IMG/VR virus record: IMGVR_UViG_3300025128_000026
Location: 1,215-65,214 of that record
Direction: 5' to 3' (one strand)
From: a virus
Taxonomy: Duplodnaviria > Caudoviricetes
DNA: 64,000 bases
Positions within the stretch are counted from its first letter, which is position 1. The number at the start of each line of letters is the position of its first letter. The position numbers and the translations under genes are program-made. Of the stretch, positions 2,121 to 64,000 are shown in pieces. Under the pieces are notes generated by a model. It made no database searches, had not been told where the DNA came from, and saw only the letters and a program-made list of their open reading frames with translations.

Positions 2121-2570
2121 TTATTCTAAGCTCATTATCTCCTTATATTTTTTAAAATCAACAACTTTATCATTCATTAGAATTTCTTTTGAATAATGTT
2201 CTATAATTTTTTGTACGCCCGGTAACTTAACGTGTGCAAAAGGCCAAATTAATTTACAAACGTAATAGGCATCTCTAAACTGACAACGCCAACGCCACTG
2301 TTTTTTCCAACCAACAGTATATTTTGTTCGATATCTTTTCTCACCAAGTGTTCCAACACCCAATACTTCGTGTAACCAAATCAAAACAGATTTATCTGTC
2401 ATTGCTATTTCCATTCTAATAGACCAAGTTGGATATGCTTTCTTTTGTCCCTTTCGTTTACGCATGTATTGTTTGTAAGTGATACAACCCTCGCCATCAA
2501 ATAAACCTGCGATGTAGGCTATATCTAATTGATCACTCACGTTCAAATCCACCGTAGATACCCGCACCAA
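2121..2570 (-). CDS. Free-standing single-motif LAGLIDADG-family protein
   Basis: IAYIAGLFDGEG motif; paralog at 60473-60934. True start may be slightly downstream. Confidence 0.8.
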   Translation of the reverse strand: MVRVSTVDLNVSDQLDIAYIAGLFDGEGCITYKQYMRKRKGQKKAYPTWSIRMEIAMTDKSVLIWLHEVLGVGTLGEKRYRTKYTVGWKKQWRWRCQFRDAYYVCKLIWPFAHVKLPGVQKIIEHYSKEILMNDKVVDFKKYKEIMSLE

Positions 2571-2581
2571 TATTTATCATA

Positions 2582-2779
2582 TCAGTTGTGCTCAGTGCGC
2601 AGTGACTTAAGCAAAGGGTGAGAATCAAAATACTCATCAAATTCCTTATCATGTATTTCTCCTTTCGAATTACAAATAGTGCATTGCATCACCACATCAT
2701 TCGCAGGGTTTTCGGACTTGTGTGTTTTAACAAATCCGTTACCTTGACAATTAGGACAGATCTTTTTTGGATCCGTCAT
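2582..2779 (-). CDS. DnaJ-type zinc-finger small protein
   Basis: CPNCQGNG...CTICNSKG (two CxxCxxxG motifs); paralog at 61103-61288. Confidence 0.75.
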   Translation of the reverse strand: MTDPKKICPNCQGNGFVKTHKSENPANDVVMQCTICNSKGEIHDKEFDEYFDSHPLLKSLRTEHN

Positions 2780-2903
2780 CTTTTTTTGTCTCGACTGGTT
2801 TTAATGATGCTAACATTGCTATGTGTTGTGCAACTTCACCGTACGGTCTTTGCCACATATATTGTAATAATTGTTTTCTTTGTTCTTCAGTCAACGTAAA
2901 CAT
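2751..2903 (-). CDS. Small hypothetical protein (50 aa)
   Basis: MFTLTEEQRKQLLQYMWQRPYGEVAQHIAML...; AGGAG RBS; same-length conserved copy at 61260-61412. Confidence 0.7.
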   Translation of the reverse strand: MFTLTEEQRKQLLQYMWQRPYGEVAQHIAMLASLKPVETKKDDGSKKDLS

Positions 2904-3076
2904 TATTTCTCCTTCATTTTTCCGTTAAGTTTCTTTTTCTTTTCGTTTGCAATACATTCAATAGTCTTAGATATGGACAGTTTTGCGTCAGGCAATAATA
3001 CCTTCGACAACTCTTCTAAAACCCTGTATGTTTCTTTTGGAAGAGAAACGTTTCTATACTTTGTTATATCGGTCAT
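2903..3076 (-). CDS. Small protein, possible ribbon-helix-helix DNA-binding regulator (57 aa)
   Basis: MTDITKYRNVSLPKETYRVLEELSKVLLPDAKLSISKTIE... has a beta-helix-helix pattern; AAAGGA RBS; conserved at 61412-61585. Confidence 0.65.
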   Translation of the reverse strand: MTDITKYRNVSLPKETYRVLEELSKVLLPDAKLSISKTIECIANEKKKKLNGKMKEK

Positions 3077-3130
3077 ACTTTCCTTTCATTTATTAATATT
3101 GATAATATAGGAGATTAATATTAAAAGTCA

Positions 3131-3349
3131 ATGATTAAATATGTTTTAATAATGATTATTTGTAGCGGAATACCTGGTAATGAATGTAGACCTATACCAG
3201 TGCCCATCTCTGAGTTTGATGAATACCATAAATGTATTATATATGGATATGATTATTCTAGTACAATGTTAAAATCATTAAATCCGATGACTATTAATGA
3301 ATTTGAAATGTTTACTGCTTTTGATTGTAAAGAACAAACTACAACTTAA
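3131..3349 (+). CDS. Small Cys-containing exported or membrane protein
   Basis: Hydrophobic N-terminus and 4 Cys; highly similar copy at 61642-61860. Confidence 0.7.
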   Translation: MIKYVLIMIICSGIPGNECRPIPVPISEFDEYHKCIIYGYDYSSTMLKSLNPMTINEFEMFTAFDCKEQTTT

Positions 3350-3558
3350 TAATTACAAATACAACCATATAAATCACCACTGCCATCTTTCATCACATGA
3401 GCGTTAACAGGGTAATCGTAATATGTTGTTAGATGTAATCTAAGTATATCACAAAGATCAAAACAATCCATTTCACTTAATAACTCTATTCCCTCTGTCA
3501 TTTCCTTTGTCACCTTTACTAAATGATAAAGTTCGTCTGTCAACAATATCAAATCCAT
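3346..3558 (-). CDS. Hypothetical protein
   Basis: DCFDLCD...GCIC motif shared with 61939-62142. Confidence 0.7.
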   Translation of the reverse strand: MDLILLTDELYHLVKVTKEMTEGIELLSEMDCFDLCDILRLHLTTYYDYPVNAHVMKDGSGDLYGCICNY

Positions 3559-3661
3559 ATGCTACCTCTTTTATCTTTCTATACCAAAGTTCTTTATACT
3601 TTGGATCTTTTGTTTTGTTCCAAAGATTCGCTATCTTGTCCAAATTGTCTTGAGTATTCAC
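3473..3661 (-). CDS. Small hypothetical protein
   Basis: LDKIANLWNKTKDPKYKELWY conserved in copy 2 (62063-62239); GTG start inferred. Confidence 0.55.
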   Translation of the reverse strand: MNTQDNLDKIANLWNKTKDPKYKELWYRKIKEVAYGFDIVDRRTLSFSKGDKGNDRGNRVIK

Positions 3662-3824
3662 CGGTTTTGTTTCCCCATTCAATAATTTTTTTAACATTTT
3701 TACCAACTATCTTTACGTCAACACCGTACCTCTTCCACGCTTTCTTCATTAAGTTTAGCTCTAAAACAAAATTAGTCCACTGTTTTTGATTAATACCCTC
3801 TATGTCTAAGACTAACTTCTTCAT
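3594..3824 (-). CDS. Hypothetical protein
   Basis: LELNLMKKAW motif conserved at 62178-62402. Confidence 0.7.
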   Translation of the reverse strand: MKKLVLDIEGINQKQWTNFVLELNLMKKAWKRYGVDVKIVGKNVKKIIEWGNKTGEYSRQFGQDSESLEQNKRSKV

Positions 3825-3988
3825 TTTTTTAATCGTTTCATTTCTTCGTACATTTTTTGTAGTTTAAACACACTACAATTTAAAACAAAAAAAGCTATTT
3901 CATCTCTCATCTTTTTTTGCTCTTCATGAGCTTTCGCTTTATTTTCCGTTATGGACATATCTATGCCCCATTTAGTTTGATCTGTCAT
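3821..3988 (-). CDS. Small hypothetical protein (55 aa)
   Basis: MTDQTKWGIDM...NCSVFKLQKM; same-length homolog at 62399-62566. Confidence 0.7.
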   Translation of the reverse strand: MTDQTKWGIDMSITENKAKAHEEQKKMRDEIAFFVLNCSVFKLQKMYEEMKRLKK

Positions 3989-4036
3989 AATATCCCTTTC
4001 ATAATTGTAGGATAATCATTTCAAGATGTTTGTCAA

Positions 4037-4171
4037 CTATTGTTTTCTTCCTTGACGATTGTAAGGTTTATGATCTCTTTTTTCTGATTTTGATAGTCTT
4101 TTTTTATGTCTTCTTGGTCGTTTTCTAGGTTTTGGCCTTGGTGTAAAGTTTACAAATTTTTGTCTAGCCAC
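4037..4171 (-). CDS. Very basic 44-aa peptide
   Basis: (GTG)ARQKFVNFTPRPKPRKRPRRHKK...NRQGRKQ; conserved with mostly synonymous changes at 62840-62974. Confidence 0.7.
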   Translation of the reverse strand: MARQKFVNFTPRPKPRKRPRRHKKRLSKSEKRDHKPYNRQGRKQ

Positions 4172-4394
4172 GATTTTCTCTTAACCATTGTTTGTCAGAT
4201 TCATTTAATTTTAAATATCTGATTGAGCCATTGACGTGTTGTTTAGTGTCTGCCCCACAATTTGTACATCTATAAAAATCAGTGACAATTGCAACCATAA
4301 TTGCCTCTTCTTCACACTCTTCACAATGCCCATGAACAGTGTCAATTTTTGAAAAATTAAATTTTATTTTAGACAAGATCTTTTGCCTTTCCAA
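4164..4394 (-). CDS. Zinc-ribbon protein
   Basis: CEEC...YRCTNCG; diverged homolog at 62961-63203. Confidence 0.7.
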   Translation of the reverse strand: MERQKILSKIKFNFSKIDTVHGHCEECEEEAIMVAIVTDFYRCTNCGADTKQHVNGSIRYLKLNESDKQWLRENRG

Positions 4395-4845
4395 TCACAG
4401 GCTTGTATTTTGTTTTACCCTCTGATTTGTAGGCATGTAAAAATTGTTTTCTTGGTTGGTCGGTGGTATAACTACAATGTATCCACCCACTGTTTGGCTC
4501 TCCTGGTGTATAAAACTCTAATATCAATTGGTCATATTCTAGGTTTTGATGAATCCAGTCAGCTAACTCAGCGTTGTCTGTGCCCATACATTCGAAGTCT
4601 GCGGCCTCAGCTTTTGCATGTTGGCTGTTGATTGAGCTACCTATTTTTAGGCACAGCTGTTCGCTACGGAACCCTGACGTTACCTTGACTCTGCCGAAGT
4701 GGTCACGTACCGGCTGTAAAATATTTTCACAAAGTAATCTTAATTTTTCTATCTGCCCTGAGTTTGGATTGTTATTGATATCCAAACGGATAGCGGTATC
4801 TGATTTAATTAACTCTTGAAGAGTGAAGTTACGTGAAAGATTCAT
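4369..4845 (-). CDS. Endolysin, peptidase M15A family
   Basis: SGFRS, SQH..AEAAD and WIHCS Zn-peptidase motifs. Confidence 0.9.
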   Translation of the reverse strand: MNLSRNFTLQELIKSDTAIRLDINNNPNSGQIEKLRLLCENILQPVRDHFGRVKVTSGFRSEQLCLKIGSSINSQHAKAEAADFECMGTDNAELADWIHQNLEYDQLILEFYTPGEPNSGWIHCSYTTDQPRKQFLHAYKSEGKTKYKPVIGKAKDLV

Positions 4846-5183
4846 TATTGTGCTAATGGATTATCGCTCTTTGCTTTTAGTTCGTCTATTTGATTTTGTA
4901 ATATTTGTATTGTTTTTTCGTTTACTAATATTTTAGTATGCCCGTGTTCTTCGTGTTTATGTTCACCAACTTTATGAGTGTGTGATGTATCTGCATTTTC
5001 TAAAGCATTAACTTTTTCTTCTAACACTGCAATCTGTGAAGAAAAATCTATACCACCACTAGCACCTTCTAATGCATCTAGTTTAGTTACAATCTCCCCA
5101 TACTTTACAAAGCCACCACCAATTGCTGCAATGACACCAAGTAAAGCTGCTACACCGGCTAATTGATTTTTAATCTTATCCAT
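4845..5183 (-). CDS. Membrane-anchored coiled-coil protein with a His-rich patch
   Basis: N-terminal TM helix, heptad repeats, HTHKVGEHKHEEHGH. Confidence 0.7.
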   Translation of the reverse strand: MDKIKNQLAGVAALLGVIAAIGGGFVKYGEIVTKLDALEGASGGIDFSSQIAVLEEKVNALENADTSHTHKVGEHKHEEHGHTKILVNEKTIQILQNQIDELKAKSDNPLAQ

Positions 5184-6579
5184 TTTGTAAAACCTGTAAC
5201 TCGTTTATCAAATTTTGACGTTCTTGTAAAATGCTATTCAACTTTTGTTTTTGTATAAAAATAGGATCTTTTTGTTTGTATTCTACTAAATCAATATCAT
5301 AAATAATACGATTGTCCTTTATATCTATTTGATCTTCGTATATAATACGCGGTTCATAAAAAGGTATATTATATGCTTCCAGAAGATTACCTGATGACAT
5401 TACTTTTAATTTTACTAAGTTTTTTAGTTCTAAGTTTTTATCTATTTGCTTAACTTGTTTGTCAATCTTTTCTAAGATTGTTTCAAGTCCTGCTGTTTTT
5501 GTTTCTTTCTGTTGTACTTCTTCTTGCTCGCTACCATCCTCTTCCGTAGCATTGGCAGTCTCAGTAGTTTCGCTATTGGATTCTTCTTGTTCATTTTCTT
5601 TTTGCTCTTCTTCAAAACCTTCTTGTAACATTTCTGATACAGTCTTTTCTTCTTCTTTTTCTTCCTCTGTAAATGTTTCAATTATTTCCATGACAGGTTC
5701 CTCTTCTTCTTTTTCCTCTTCTTGTAACATAACAAACTCTTCAATGATAGGTTCCTCTTCAAACTTCTCCTCTTCTTCCATGACTATCATGACAGGTGGT
5801 TCCATCTCAAACTCCTCTTCCATTTTTATTTCTTCTTCAAAAAAGAATTCTTCTACAATCTGTTCTATCTCTTCAAACTCTTCACCCAAGTCATCAAATA
5901 TTTCAACTATTTCTTCTTTGATTGCAGGAGGTAATGGTGAATATAATATATTTAATAGTGTTGCTTTTAGTTCTGCACCCAATAAGTTTGGTCCAACAGC
6001 ACTAGTGCTATTAGGATTATTACCATCTATACCTTGCCACTGCCAACTCCATTTTCTTGAACCCTCTCCAGTATGTGTGACTGTGTCTGTATATGTATAT
6101 GTATTGTTATTGTAACCTGAATCTGTATTTCTGTTTTGTGTGACTGTTGCAAGCTCTTCATTATTCTCATCTAGTATTGTAACTGTTGTAGAATAACTAT
6201 CTTGACCTGATGTTGCTTGACCACATTGATGTGCGGACCCAACCCACTCGCAGTTTTGTACCTCTGTCTTTGATGTAAGTGTAACACCACCATCCAAACT
6301 ATCTTCTGTAGTTGTATGATCACCTGCAGATATATTTAATAGCGTACCTGATGCAGATACTGTGCCGGTGCCGTTTGCTTCTAGTTCATTAAAGTTAGAT
6401 GAATAATCAGTGACATTGTTAAGAGTGAAACCAGTAGAGCTATTGATACCATCTATTGTACTATTCGAGTGTTGTGGACTTGTTTGTCCTGTTCCTGCAT
6501 TGGGTAATAAATTACCTGTTGTTGCTGTATCTGCAAGTACACCAGTTGATAGTAATAGTAAAGGTATTAACCATTTCAT
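5176..6579 (-). CDS. Secreted protein with a long acidic (Glu-rich) linker
   Basis: Signal peptide MKWLIPLLLLSTGVLA, Thr/Asn-rich beta domain, E-rich tract. Confidence 0.75.
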   Translation of the reverse strand: MKWLIPLLLLSTGVLADTATTGNLLPNAGTGQTSPQHSNSTIDGINSSTGFTLNNVTDYSSNFNELEANGTGTVSASGTLLNISAGDHTTTEDSLDGGVTLTSKTEVQNCEWVGSAHQCGQATSGQDSYSTTVTILDENNEELATVTQNRNTDSGYNNNTYTYTDTVTHTGEGSRKWSWQWQGIDGNNPNSTSAVGPNLLGAELKATLLNILYSPLPPAIKEEIVEIFDDLGEEFEEIEQIVEEFFFEEEIKMEEEFEMEPPVMIVMEEEEKFEEEPIIEEFVMLQEEEKEEEEPVMEIIETFTEEEKEEEKTVSEMLQEGFEEEQKENEQEESNSETTETANATEEDGSEQEEVQQKETKTAGLETILEKIDKQVKQIDKNLELKNLVKLKVMSSGNLLEAYNIPFYEPRIIYEDQIDIKDNRIIYDIDLVEYKQKDPIFIQKQKLNSILQERQNLINELQVLQNG

Positions 6580-60181: not shown

Positions 60182-60476
60182 TTCCTATTACCAATCCTTT
60201 CTTCCCACCTTTTTCAATTGCAGGTGCAATAAATAATTTATCTTTTTTATATCGTAACATCGGTACAACATTCGCGTATCCATAACCTGTAACCAGTCCT
60301 AATTCAAATCCATTATGTTCTAGTCCAACATAAGCAGATATATTATCTTCACTATTATAATAAATACCTGATATCACAGCATCTTTTTGGCACCGTGCGT
60401 GTGGATGTATCGAGTTATAATTACCCTCTAACCCTACATGCATAGACAAAGCTAACATTAAACTAAGACAACTCAT
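60171..60476 (-). CDS. Small exported beta-strand protein, possibly outer membrane
   Basis: Signal-like N-terminus; GIYYNSE, ELGLVTGY; C-terminal Phe (IGIEF). Confidence 0.65.
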   Translation of the reverse strand: MSCLSLMLALSMHVGLEGNYNSIHPHARCQKDAVISGIYYNSEDNISAYVGLEHNGFELGLVTGYGYANVVPMLRYKKDKLFIAPAIEKGGKKGLVIGIEF

Positions 60477-60934
60477 TCTAAACTCATCGCTTGTTTGTAT
60501 TCATCTAAACTTACAACATTACCATTCATAATTTTTTCTTTAGAATAATGTTCAATAACCTGTTGTATCTTATCTAATTTTACATGAGCAAATGGCCACA
60601 AGATAAGACATACTTGGTAGCAATCTCTAAACGTACATCGCCACTTATATTGTTTTAGATACGGCGTACCATCTTTACGTTTACCTTTTACTCTTTTAGG
60701 CCTGAGTGTACCTACACCCAAGACTTCATGGACCCAAACTAATACAGAATAATCTGTCATGGTTATCTCCATGCTAATACGCATAGAATTAGAGGTCCGG
60801 TATCCATCTCCCTTGTGTTTCTTTTTCTTCTCGATACCACGTTTAAAGTGTATGGACCCCTCACCATCAAAGAGTCCTGCGATATATGCTGCGTCTACTT
60901 CGTTCATTTCTTGCCTTTCTGTTGTGCAATCCAT
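60473..60934 (-). CDS. LAGLIDADG-family protein, copy 2
   Basis: AAYIAGLFDGEG. Confidence 0.8.
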   Translation of the reverse strand: MDCTTERQEMNEVDAAYIAGLFDGEGSIHFKRGIEKKKKHKGDGYRTSNSMRISMEITMTDYSVLVWVHEVLGVGTLRPKRVKGKRKDGTPYLKQYKWRCTFRDCYQVCLILWPFAHVKLDKIQQVIEHYSKEKIMNGNVVSLDEYKQAMSLE

Positions 60935-61110
60935 ATCAACTCTTCTAGTTTTGTTTTGAATCGCGGCACTCGTTTGTTATCTTTCTGTATCACTTTCTTA
61001 CCATCTGTGTGTGCAAACTCTTGGTTGTCCCTTGACGCTCGATCCTCGTCTCTTATCTCTACATCAACAGAGTCTTGGTCAATATCTAGCCAGTGTCTGC
61101 TTTTACGCAT
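60904..61110 (-). CDS. Hypothetical protein (copy 2 only)
   Basis: Coupled ORF with no full counterpart in copy 1. Confidence 0.55.
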   Translation of the reverse strand: MRKSRHWLDIDQDSVDVEIRDEDRASRDNQEFAHTDGKKVIQKDNKRVPRFKTKLEELIWIAQQKGKK

Positions 61111-61288
61111 CGGATGGTTTCAGTATTTTATATCTTTCAAAATACTCGTCATACTCTTTGTCACGTACTTCGCCTTGTGAATTACAGACTACGCATTGTA
61201 TAACGTCATCGATTCGGTTAATGGATTCTTTAACTCTAACGAACCCATTACCAAAACAATTAGGACAGATCTTTTTTTGGTCCGTCAT
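61103..61288 (-). CDS. DnaJ-type zinc-finger protein, copy 2
   Basis: CPNCFGNG...CVVCNSQG. Confidence 0.75.
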   Translation of the reverse strand: MTDQKKICPNCFGNGFVRVKESINRIDDVIQCVVCNSQGEVRDKEYDEYFERYKILKPSDA

Positions 61289-61412
61289 CTTTTTTATTTT
61301 CTGCAGGTTTTAGTGATGCTAACATTGCTATGTGTTGTGCAACTTCACCGTATGGTCTTTGCCACATGTATTGTAATAATTGTTTTCTTTGTTCTTCAGT
61401 TAATGTAAACAT
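61260..61412 (-). CDS. Small hypothetical protein, copy 2
   Basis: Homolog of 2751-2903. Confidence 0.7.
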   Translation of the reverse strand: MFTLTEEQRKQLLQYMWQRPYGEVAQHIAMLASLKPAENKKDDGPKKDLS

Positions 61413-61585
61413 TATTTCTCCTTTAATTTACCATTAAGTTTTTTAGCTTTTTCGTTTGCTATAGATTCTACTGTCTTTGATATGGATAACTTTGCGTCAG
61501 GCAATAATACCTTCGACAACTTCTCCAAAGTAGAGTATGTTTCCTTTGTGAGTGAAACGTTTCTGTATTTGGTTATATCAGTCAT
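61412..61585 (-). CDS. RHH-like small protein, copy 2
   Basis: Homolog of 2903-3076. Confidence 0.65.
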   Translation of the reverse strand: MTDITKYRNVSLTKETYSTLEKLSKVLLPDAKLSISKTVESIANEKAKKLNGKLKEK

Positions 61586-61641
61586 CTGATTTCCTTTCGT
61601 TTATTAATGATGATAATATAGGAGAATAATATTAAAAGTCA

Positions 61642-61860
61642 ATGACAAAATATATATTAATGATGATAATATGCAGCGGAATACCTGGTAATGAATGTAA
61701 ACCTATACCGGTGCCTATGTCTGAATTTGATGAGTACTATAAATGTATTATCTACGGGTATGATTATTCTAGTACAATGTTAAAGTCATTGAATCCAATG
61801 ACCATCAATGAATATGAAATGTTTACTGCTTTCGATTGCAAAGAACAGACTACAACTTAA
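61642..61860 (+). CDS. Small Cys-containing exported protein, copy 2
   Basis: Homolog of 3131-3349. Confidence 0.7.
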   Translation: MTKYILMMIICSGIPGNECKPIPVPMSEFDEYYKCIIYGYDYSSTMLKSLNPMTINEYEMFTAFDCKEQTTT

Positions 61861-61942
61861 TGTGGCTCCCGGTAGGTCTCACCCGGGATTATTCCTAACA
61901 CATGCCGTGCATCGCATCCAAGACCAATGGGCCACAACTTAA
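61861..61942 (-). ncRNA. 82-bp inserted structured element (3-way junction plus pseudoknot) flanked by a 9-bp direct repeat
   Basis: ACAACTTAA at 61852-61860 and 61934-61942; single copy at 3341-3349 in the other allele. Confidence 0.6.
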
Positions 61943-62142
61943 CGACAGATACATCCAAACCACTGACCACCACCCCAGGGACCACTTTTAATTATGTGTT
62001 GGTTTCTATCTTCAAGATAAGTAGTTACTCGTTCTCGAACCATGTCACAAAAATCAAAACAATCAGTCGTTAGATTCTCTGCGATTAGGATCGAATGGTA
62101 GAGTCCGTCCTTTAGAATTATAATATCCATCTCCATAAGCAA
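61939..62142 (-). CDS. Hypothetical protein, diverged copy 2
   Basis: DCFDFCD...GCIC. Confidence 0.7.
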   Translation of the reverse strand: MLMEMDIIILKDGLYHSILIAENLTTDCFDFCDMVRERVTTYLEDRNQHIIKSGPWGGGQWFGCICR

Positions 62143-62239
62143 GTTCTTTTATTAGTTTATACCAAACTTCTCTGTATTTAGGATCTTTTGTTTTGTTGTA
62201 CTCGTTTGCGAGTTTGTCTAGTTGATCTTGTGTAGTCAT
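62063..62239 (-). CDS. Small hypothetical protein, copy 2
   Basis: MTTQDQLDKLANEYNKTKDPKYREVWY. Confidence 0.55.
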   Translation of the reverse strand: MTTQDQLDKLANEYNKTKDPKYREVWYKLIKELAYGDGYYNSKGRTLPFDPNRRESND

Positions 62240-62402
62240 TTACAGTTGTTCCTTTCTCAATTATTTTATTAATTGAATGTGCTTTTAACTTAACATCAAC
62301 ACCGTATGGCCTCCATGCTTTCTTCATTAAGTTTAACTCTAATAAAAATGTAGACCACTGTCCTTGTGATATACCTTCAACGTTTAGTGTAACCGTTTTC
62401 AT
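62178..62402 (-). CDS. Hypothetical protein, copy 2
   Basis: LELNLMKKAW. Confidence 0.7.
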   Translation of the reverse strand: MKTVTLNVEGISQGQWSTFLLELNLMKKAWRPYGVDVKLKAHSINKIIEKGTTVNDYTRSTRQTRKRVQQNKRS

Positions 62403-62566
62403 TTTTTTAACTCCTTCATTCTTTCTGTCATTTTTTGTAATTGATATACACTACAATTTTTTATAAACTCTTCAACTTCTTTTCGCATAAGCTTTTGATC
62501 TTCATAAGCTTTTGCTTTGTTTTCTTGTTGCACCATGTCGATGCCCCATCTTGTTTGATCTACCAT
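62399..62566 (-). CDS. Small hypothetical protein, copy 2
   Basis: MVDQTRWGIDMVQQENKAKA...; AAAGGAG RBS. Confidence 0.7.
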   Translation of the reverse strand: MVDQTRWGIDMVQQENKAKAYEDQKLMRKEVEEFIKNCSVYQLQKMTERMKELKK

Positions 62567-62581
62567 AACTTTCTCCTTTTA

Positions 62582-62785
62582 CTAACTCACTCGGTGGGCC
62601 TTCCTGGTAGTCACCCACAACCTTTCCCGAAGCGTCCCATCTAATTTGTTTAGATAAGTCGGTACTCAGAACCAATTCCCGTGTCTTCAGCCACTCGGCC
62701 GTAACCCTCGGGTCTTGTGCGTTACATCCGCTTAAACGTTGTTCCGCCACAAAGCTTTACAAAGTTGCAACTTTATAAATTGAGT
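62582..62785 (-). ncRNA. Candidate ~200-nt GC-rich structured leader RNA (copy 2 only)
   Basis: Multiple stems with G-U pairs on the minus strand; lies between the promoter TTGACA-N17-TATATA (62794-62822) and the ORF at 62566. Confidence 0.55.
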
Positions 62786-62839
62786 ATGCGTAATATATAG
62801 GATATCTAGGGATATTTGTCAACAATAAAAATAATTTTT

Positions 62840-62974
62840 TTATTGTTTTCTACCCTGTCGATTGTACGGTTTATGATCCCTTTTTTCTGATTTATTGAGG
62901 CTTTTCTTGTGACGCCGAGGACGTTTTCTAGGCTTTGGTCTTGGTGTAAAGTTTACAAATTTACGTTTGGCCAT
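62840..62974 (-). CDS. Very basic 44-aa peptide, copy 2
   Basis: MAKRKFVNFTPRPKPRKRPRRHKK... Confidence 0.7.
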   Translation of the reverse strand: MAKRKFVNFTPRPKPRKRPRRHKKSLNKSEKRDHKPYNRQGRKQ

Positions 62975-63203
62975 CTTTATCTACTTCTTGAACCGTTAGG
63001 TCTATAGGTAAATAACTTATCTTGCCATTTACTTTCTGCTCTATGTCCCCACCACAGTTTAAACATCTGTAGTAGTCTTGCACTACTGATATCAGCAGCG
63101 TATGGTCCCCGCAATGTGGACAAACACCATCCACCATCTTTGCTCTTTTAATTATTTCTGCAAACAATGTACTCTTTTTAGACAAGGTCTTTTGCCTTTC
63201 CAA
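62961..63203 (-). CDS. Zinc-ribbon protein, diverged copy 2
   Basis: CPHC...YRCLNCG. Confidence 0.7.
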   Translation of the reverse strand: MERQKTLSKKSTLFAEIIKRAKMVDGVCPHCGDHTLLISVVQDYYRCLNCGGDIEQKVNGKISYLPIDLTVQEVDKDGQT

Positions 63204-63654
63204 TCACAGGTTTGTATTTTGTTTTACCCTCTGATTTATAGGCATGTAAAAATTGTTTTCTTGGTTGGTCAGTAGTGTAGCTGCAGTGTATCCACCCACT
63301 GTTTGGTTCTCCAGGTGTGTAAAATTCTAATATCAATTGATCAAATTCTAGGTTGTTATAAATCCAGTCAGCCAATTCTGCATTGTCTGTGCCCATGCAT
63401 TCAAAGTCTGCGGCCTCGGCTTTGGCGTGTTGACTATTGATTGAGCTACCAATTTTTATACAAAGTTGTTCACTACGGAACCCGCTCGTCACCTTGACCC
63501 TGCCAAAATGGTCACGTACCGGCTGTAAAATATTCTCACAAAGTAATCTTAACTTTTCTATCTGCCCTGAGTTTGGATTGTTATTGATATCCAAACGGAT
63601 AGCAGTATCTGATTTGATTAACTCTTGAAGAGTAAAGTTACGTGAAAGATTCAT
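63178..63654 (-). CDS. Endolysin, peptidase M15A, copy 2
   Basis: Near-identical protein to 4369-4845. Confidence 0.9.
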   Translation of the reverse strand: MNLSRNFTLQELIKSDTAIRLDINNNPNSGQIEKLRLLCENILQPVRDHFGRVKVTSGFRSEQLCIKIGSSINSQHAKAEAADFECMGTDNAELADWIYNNLEFDQLILEFYTPGEPNSGWIHCSYTTDQPRKQFLHAYKSEGKTKYKPVIGKAKDLV

Positions 63655-63992
63655 TATTGTGCTAATGGATTATCGCTCTTTGCTTTTAGTTCGTCTATTT
63701 GATTTTGTAATATTTGTATTGTTTTTTCGTTTACTAATATTTTAGTATGACCGTGTTCCTCGTGTTTGTGTTCACCAACTTCATGAGTGTGTGATGTATC
63801 TGCATTTTCTAAAGCATTAACTTTTTCTTCTAACACTGCAATCTGTGGAGAAAAATCTATGCCACCACTAGCACCTTCTAATGCATCTAGTTTAGTTACA
63901 ATTTCCCCATACTTTACAAAGCCACCACCAATTGCTGCAATGACACCAAGTAAAGCTGCTACACCGGCTAATTGATTTTTAATCTTATCCAT
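63654..63992 (-). CDS. Membrane coiled-coil protein, copy 2
   Basis: Two amino-acid differences from 4845-5183. Confidence 0.7.
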   Translation of the reverse strand: MDKIKNQLAGVAALLGVIAAIGGGFVKYGEIVTKLDALEGASGGIDFSPQIAVLEEKVNALENADTSHTHEVGEHKHEEHGHTKILVNEKTIQILQNQIDELKAKSDNPLAQ

Positions 63993-64000
63993 TTTGTAAA

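Follow-up and report, generated by a model that had tools for sequence, protein, structure and literature searches.

A strongly conserved RNA family of marine SAR11 (Pelagibacter) phages, absent from catalogues, is represented in the window (the whole stretch of 64,000 nt analyzed here, from IMG/VR virus record IMGVR_UViG_3300025128_000026) by a single element on the minus strand. Judging from its sequence and its position, the reading that we favor, with a probability of about 0.35, is that this element would be a portable 3′-end module, either halting nucleases or generating the ends of transcripts.

The record is a virus contig of 65,214 nt, and the window contains two copies of one gene block, ~58.4 kb apart (2123–5191 and 60475–64000), which share stretches of 65–85% identity. 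We infer that the assembly of one circular or terminally redundant genome continued beyond its start into a second strain: most probably, the contig makes one full turn of a ~58-kb genome before passing into that strain. In copy 1, a plus-strand gene (3131–3349) and a minus-strand gene (3346–3558) converge, and their stop codons overlap within a single ACAACTTAA (3341–3349), which represents the empty site. In copy 2, the same word is found twice (61852–61860 and 61934–61942) with 73 nt between (61861–61933), and each repeat contains one stop codon: the left repeat that of the convergent 72-aa gene (61642–61860, plus strand) and the right repeat that of a 67-aa gene (61939–62142, minus strand). 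The right repeat also overlaps the first 2 nt of the closing stem P1 described below. The insert presents a G+C-content of 57.5%, against 36.3% for the window. A sequence-only reading of this stretch had described an 82-bp insert with a 9-bp duplication in one allele, with a deletion between chance repeats in copy 1 as the alternative. The former is what we observed (ACAACTTAA twice in copy 2, once in copy 1), and other viral contigs argue against the latter. In locus L025, both 90-nt flanks of copy 2 are matched at 90 of 90 positions, yet the sequence runs from a single ACAACTTAA directly into CGACAG and the element is absent. Loci L026–L028 likewise present empty sites, with 82–92% identity to the copy-2 flanks. 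These empty sites with a single repeat indicate that the copy-2 lineage gained the element by insertion, which makes the 82 extra bases a genuine insert at this site.

The element is carried irregularly by phages with related genes. Homologues of the 72-aa gene were fetched in 22 loci, none of which contains it (0/22). The 67-aa gene is related to the 70-aa gene of copy 1, whose family counts 452 relatives, and the element was detected in 2 of the 80 best loci of this family, which indicates a sporadic distribution. About 1 kb from the element, an ORF of 149–153 aa (60473–60934) presents a weak LAGLIDADG match (23 bits, at the Pfam cut-off), and its counterpart in copy 1 (2121–2570) carries the same motif.

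A 20-mer of the element was found in 23 viral stretches, 22 of which hold the whole element with differing flanks; the remaining match (L007) was discarded as a G+C-rich chance hit. Looser patterns brought the list to 123 different sequences of the element, distributed over 129 distinct contexts on viral contigs, which confirms the suggestion that other insertion contexts would exist. All these patterns fixed GGGTG and TACC, so that the invariance of both words is partly by construction. We built a covariance model (R1) from 80 unique copies of the element. In the window, R1 matched 77 nt on the minus strand (61861–61937; 85.5 bits; E = 8.9e-19), and this copy is the only one, the next-best score being 9.5 bits. 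Each of 100 member loci likewise contained one copy (100/100): 99 full-length hits scored 59.7–100.7 bits and one copy cut by a contig end scored 43.2 bits. Members range in size from 73 to 113 nt. No true copy was found by two pattern scans of 185,579 bacterial and archaeal species genomes (one per species); the pattern matches obtained, 4 and then 9, were attributed to chance based on their model scores (≤21 bits, relative to ≥59 for full-length members).

The 1-kb region around the element had no match among GenBank phages. When the element alone was used as the BLAST query, three records were retrieved, all Pelagibacter phages: Mosig EXVC030M, where the element scores 63.3 bits, and Kolga EXVC016S and Aegir EXVC013S, which carry a 113-nt form (65.3 bits). 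Mosig is a myovirus, and Kolga and Aegir count as siphoviruses, their records stating only Caudoviricetes. Mosig, Kolga/Aegir and the window's lineage have only their host in common. In Kolga, the element begins 4 nt past the stop codon of gp47 (3 nt between), a gene product 75% identical to that of the 70-aa gene of copy 1. Depth summed across the element reached 325–537 in the DNA sequencing run X1, relative to ~8 on its flanks, which shows that the element is common to many genomes in this sample. A second stretch of ~100 nt in the window (61536–61637) behaves in the same way (summed depth of 290–477 in X1, relative to ~8 nearby). It is located between divergent 57-aa and 72-aa genes, contains promoter-like sites on both strands and also seems to be common to many genomes of the X1 sample.

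We then analyzed the fold of the element. Covariation was counted on the model-based alignment (94 distinct rows), and the named structure leaves 95.1% of cells paired, against 31–49% when pairing partners are slid. The covariation score was 0.389, relative to at most 0.083 for the slid structures, and none of 500 shuffles reached it. The closing stem P1 pairs GUGGC (61931–61935, minus strand) with GCCAC (61862–61866, minus strand); three of its five pairs are doubly changed and its variants include GGGC/GCCC and UGGU/ACCA. The hairpin P2 pairs UCCCGG (61883–61888, minus strand) with CCGGGA (61867–61872, minus strand), with four of six pairs doubly changed and 96% of cells paired across the 94 distinct sequences; its 3′ strand is followed by the P1 3′ strand with 0 nt between in 107/129 sequences. 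The hairpin P3, GCACG-GCA-UGUGU (61898–61910, minus strand), pairs 61906–61910 with 61898–61902; four of these five pairs are doubly changed, and at the closing position 76 sequences have G·U, 9 have G-C and 4 have A-U. A further hairpin, P4, is present in 74/129 sequences and absent from the others. Finally, GGUCUU (61920–61925, minus strand) and GAGACC (61875–61880, minus strand), the latter within the P2 loop, form a pseudoknot whose central pair is U-A in 115 and C-G in 8 of the 123 unique sequences, with no half-changed form. The eight C-G sequences belong to four groups that are 60–85% alike, and one C-G sequence shares 94% identity with a form that has U-A. The compensatory form was found in the two-hairpin subtype only, using a pattern with the loop left free; with the same freedom, the window's subtype displayed no covariation at the pseudoknot (AGACC in the loop of 49/49 sequences). 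P1, P2, P3, the optional P4 and the pseudoknot are thus supported by covariation, and ~30 unpaired bases are conserved besides.

Much of the fold proposed from the letters alone survives this analysis. Double changes in P1, P2, P3 and the pseudoknot answer the concern that homologs might lack compensatory changes; the inverted ends pairing as P1 and the CCCGG/CCGGG hairpin both covary, and the predicted GGUCUU:GAGACC pairing is upheld by the central-pair counts given above. The register of the middle hairpin has to be revised: AUGC/GCAU is not conserved and the conserved register is GCACG/UGUGU. Folding of the single sequence was uninformative, neither strand folding better than its shuffles (minus strand: minimum free energy −26.0 kcal/mol, z = +0.37, 126/200 shuffles folding equally well), and an unremarkable folding energy counts to some extent against a 3′-end module. 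RNAalifold on a MAFFT alignment recovered P2 and P3 only, with P1 out of register, and the model-based alignment was used instead.

The strand of the RNA can be assigned from the same alignment. Read on the minus strand, G·U pairs occupy 209 cells and A·C pairs 12, as expected under the strand choice of the sequence-only reading. The P4 loops, read in the same direction, are UUCG in 14/74 and UACG in 7/74 sequences, and the element shares its strand with the neighboring S21, Hsp20 and primase genes. The G·U excess, the P4 loops and the same-strand neighbors together indicate that the RNA strand is the minus strand of the window. The long ORFs of the window are nearly all on the minus strand too, so the element is co-oriented with transcription.

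These observations weigh heavily on the idea that the element acts at the DNA level only, as a miniature transposable element or a recombination site whose inverted ends mimic an RNA stem. The clean insertion in the window, with a duplication of 7–9 bp, and the short inverted ends (P1), which differ in sequence between members and covary like an RNA stem, would fit such an element. However, compensatory changes preserve the internal helices and the pseudoknot, the G·U excess is restricted to one strand, UNCG loops occur on the RNA strand, and the element is always co-oriented with its neighbors. The duplication itself is not general. Three comparisons of filled and empty sites were readable (the window, L154 and L021), and the 7–9 bp duplication was seen in the window only. 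The comparison of L154 with L170, L035 and L036 revealed none (the insert starts with TAGTGG and ends with CCACAC), nor did that of L021 with L022, in which the downstream flank of L021 has diverged. A general target-site duplication was consequently rejected (0/2 other pairs), and the fixed-length duplication that a MITE or an IS leaves at every insertion was not observed. We consider a purely DNA-level element very improbable. Among the readable pairs, the duplication is particular to the window rather than a signature of the family, and 'tiny mobile element', one of four candidates first put forward, is apt as a description. In L070 and L307, whose contexts are unrelated, TTAAGTT likewise stands immediately before the element. 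We infer that the element entered by recombination through short identity, with selection keeping both overlapping stop codons, rather than by fixed-duplication transposition.

None of the catalogued RNA families searched accounts for the element. Searching the 64-kb window with Rfam 15 returned no match; at E ≤ 10, nothing was found at the window element or at a two-hairpin copy, and at E ≤ 1 nothing was found at the element in 10 other loci. The models searched include hammerhead, twister, twister-sister, pistol, hatchet and HDV-like ribozymes, riboswitches, tRNA and tmRNA, so that the covariance-model search suggested at the outset was run and no family matches. Weak hits of two snoRNA models and the mcrA model fell outside the element and were taken as chance. 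ARAGORN predicted no tRNA or tmRNA gene in the window and none at the element in seven loci. Titles and abstract openings in the literature on the element core, Flavobacterium-1, pelagiphage RNA and marine-phage ribozymes contained nothing relevant. The element is a new RNA family, unaccounted for by Rfam, by the tRNA finder and, as far as titles and abstract openings tell, by the literature found. An antitoxin RNA of known type, another of the initial candidates, is disfavored: a tandem array of the type III (ToxI-like) kind is absent, with one copy per locus in 100/100 loci and in the window.

A processing signal shaped like a tRNA, in which the P1–P2 stack and a pseudoknotted 'elbow' would be cut at the edges by RNase P or RNase Z, was considered in view of several geometric features. 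The commonest length of the P1+P2 stack is 11 bp (41/129), two unpaired nucleotides follow the P1 5′ strand in 125/129 sequences, and P2 joins the P1 3′ strand without a spacer (107/129); an AUUGGU stretch is reminiscent of a tRNA D-loop. However, ARAGORN is silent at the element, the Rfam tRNA and tmRNA models are unmatched, the 10-nt P2 loop is devoid of a T-loop sequence and the P3 loop varies in length, which makes such a signal quite unlikely.

Genomic contexts also inform the role of the element. In myophage-type contexts, its neighbors are a phage S21 gene upstream and an Hsp20 gene downstream. S21 was the upstream neighbor in 4 of 10 cases (eight other loci and the window's two small-gene forms), and Hsp20 was the downstream gene in 5 of 10 representatives. 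Mosig and Kolga, like many myophage contigs, have S21 upstream of the element; a functional link with S21 was rejected, as the window's genome is without S21, and the association was treated as a shared neighborhood. Downstream genes vary (Hsp20, primase and unknowns). A riboswitch or another 5′ regulatory element of the downstream gene could explain the conserved, aptamer-like core and the presence of Hsp20 50–230 nt downstream in myophage contexts. The arrangement of the loci is at odds with a 5′ leader: the next feature in the window is a convergent gene, downstream genes differ between loci, and a TATAAATA promoter-like motif separates the element from Hsp20 elsewhere. We regard this explanation as the most improbable of those considered. 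Separately, a glutamine riboswitch aptamer was detected directly after a phage Hsp20 gene (L053:2499–2547; 53 bits).

Promoter-like motifs are distributed asymmetrically around the element. Within 80 nt on the same strand, TTGACA occurs downstream in 34/129 contexts and upstream in 1/129, and TATAAATA, which we take to be the late-promoter word of T4-type phages, occurs downstream in 18/129 and upstream in 1/129; the 129 contexts are mutually non-independent. In the window, a promoter-like site on the minus strand (61642 to 61613; 10/12 matches) is found ~220 nt downstream. The element had been judged too complex for a terminator, and this judgment holds: no terminator-like site was called at the element, and at least 6 T in the first 12 nt after it were found in only 15/129 contexts. 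In L008, L009, L015, L018, L023, L024, L104, L134 and others, the element is flanked by arrays of short CAAGC/GCTTG repeats; some are palindromic around AAGCTT, and TTGACA is frequent within them when the RNA strand is read.

The element also neighbors another small RNA. Flavobacterium-1 (RF02976), named for Flavobacteria, scores 69–119 bits in contigs related to SAR11 phages (L009, L012, L018, L024, L052, L059, L127, L002, L154 and L068) and lies on the same strand, 7–10 nt from the element, in 10 of 20 window-type loci, upstream of it in nine and downstream in one. In myophage contexts, further conserved hairpins occur between the element and the next promoter, which indicates that the element is not always the last structure of its unit. 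Hairpins between S21 and Hsp20 (L077:300–760, L263:1366–1840 and other myophage-type loci) show compensatory changes of their own. In myophage-type loci, a hairpin with the loop CUCGUAAGAC follows a TATAAATA-like word upstream of the element, and a block around GGCAUUUGCGCC lies downstream; Rfam returned no match at E ≤ 1 over five such loci. Two short genes of Mosig annotated as 'hypothetical protein', Mosig_00015 and Mosig_00014 (MT647606; L263:1431–1550 and 1563–1679), cover the element and neighboring hairpins, and may be RNA rather than protein genes.

One contig of an RNA library (run X20) contains the element with 0 differences. It stops 3 nt beyond the 3′ end, with adapter letters adjacent, and is continuous upstream into the small-gene end of another phage. 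Run X18 yielded an adapter-joined contig at an unrelated place as well, so the end of the X20 contig is a weak hint only. Runs X18 and X19 are without coverage of the element, and such contigs show neither transcript ends, expression level nor absence.

These positional observations are best fitted, among the four candidates of the sequence-only reading, by the nuclease-resistant 3′ element. In the window, the element lies between convergent genes and begins 4 nt past the stop codon of the 67-aa gene (3 nt between). On the minus strand, the element would be read in one transcript with the upstream gene. P1 stacks on P2, and GAGACC in the P2 loop pairs with GGUCUU just after P1 to tie the pseudoknot; the variable hairpins P3 and, in other members, P4 project from a junction with many conserved unpaired bases. 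The element would act in cis. Placed behind a gene or small RNA and ahead of the following promoter, this compact, G+C-rich knot would create or shield the 3′ terminus of the RNA upstream of it. Stopping 3′-to-5′ exonucleases would be the likeliest route of protection, and self-cleavage an alternative means of making an end. Spread between phages would proceed by recombination into gaps between transcription units; in the window, recombination at the TTAAGTT(GT) identity would have left the duplication and preserved both overlapping stop codons. Against a 3′-end module, the proximity to promoters could merely reflect tolerance to insertion, and a simple hairpin would already be enough to slow exonucleases. 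The ~30 conserved unpaired bases point to a more specific role: catalysis, or binding of a ligand or a protein.

The first of these roles corresponds to a new class of small self-cleaving ribozymes, cutting read-through transcripts at the boundaries of units and, for example, freeing the Flavobacterium-1 RNA that ends 7–10 nt upstream. The size, the pseudoknot, the conserved unpaired junction bases beside freely covarying or optional stems and the sporadic intergenic spread among phages are all typical of known small ribozymes, and the element abuts another small RNA in 10/20 loci. Conversely, the Rfam ribozyme models are unmatched even at E ≤ 10, no known ribozyme lies nearby (window and 30 loci scanned), and the X20 contig, albeit weak evidence, runs uninterrupted through the element's 5′ edge. 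A self-cleaving RNA of this kind strikes us as possible though unlikely. The more specific version, a ~75-nt naked module punctuating SAR11-phage transcripts that may be a circularly permuted relative of pistol, is a little less probable still.

It is also conceivable, albeit doubtful, that the element is a stable small RNA, freed from its transcript, whose target in trans would be a conserved SAR11 factor and which would serve as a decoy, as an anti-defence RNA or to mimic an antitoxin. Unrelated types of phages that share only their host carry it, its distribution is sporadic like that of an accessory gene (0/22 and 2/80 best loci), it sits amid other small RNAs and its conserved core might serve as a binding face. 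Against it, promoter-like motifs are rare within 80 nt upstream (1/129), and the single copy (one hit per locus, 100/100) differs from a tandem array. We retain the portable 3′-end module as the preferred reading.

Pelagiphages are among the most abundant viruses of the sea and, to our knowledge, almost nothing is known of their RNA biology. A compact pseudoknotted RNA is common here to phage lineages that share only their host, and has no counterpart in Rfam or in 185,579 cellular genomes. Comparable profiles earlier marked ribozymes, riboswitches or nuclease-resistant RNAs; in each case the element would represent a new structural type, and it would constitute a new class if it proved self-cleaving or nuclease-blocking. 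In the window, moreover, a naked RNA module has inserted cleanly at the shared stop codons of two genes, and the cultured carriers Kolga, Aegir and Mosig make the element accessible at the bench.

Several known systems resemble the element in part. The PeSL cassettes of T4-type phages and the REP- or MITE-like repeats of bacteria are also short non-coding modules at varied intergenic sites. However, those are simple hairpins in many copies per genome, whereas the element presents one copy per genome, four to five helices, a pseudoknot and RNA-type covariation. Flavobacterium-1 (RF02976) is likewise an orphan small RNA of the same phage contigs and the same strand, but it is a distinct RNA, 121 nt long and differently folded, and it occurs alone in L170, L035 and L036. 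Like the element, two tRNA-like 3′-processing elements, the mascRNA of MALAT1 and the RNase P-processed C4 RNA of phage P1, have a closing stem that stacks on a hairpin and a tertiary contact resembling an elbow, and they are located at the end of a longer transcript. In contrast to these, the tRNA models are silent at the element, and its elbow is a 6-bp pseudoknot rather than a T-loop/D-loop contact. The pistol ribozyme is small, is found in phage-like contexts and has a similar topology, in which a hairpin loop and a nearby single strand form a pseudoknot of ~6 bp. Yet the strand order of the element differs, so that it would be at best a circular permutation, the Rfam pistol model gives no hit and the G-U cleavage site is not identifiable in the element. 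The xrRNAs (exoribonuclease-resistant RNAs) of flaviviruses and plant viruses consist of ~70 nt arranged as a multi-helix junction with a hairpin-loop pseudoknot. The element has such a junction, built of P1, P2, P3 and the optional P4 and closed by the pseudoknot, and it has conserved junction bases with variable stems as xrRNAs do; by analogy, it might also act in cis at the end of an RNA. It matches no xrRNA sequence or model, and while xrRNAs halt 5′-to-3′ enzymes in RNA viruses of eukaryotes, the element is found at 3′ ends in DNA phages, where it would perhaps be the first 3′-end knot of this kind.
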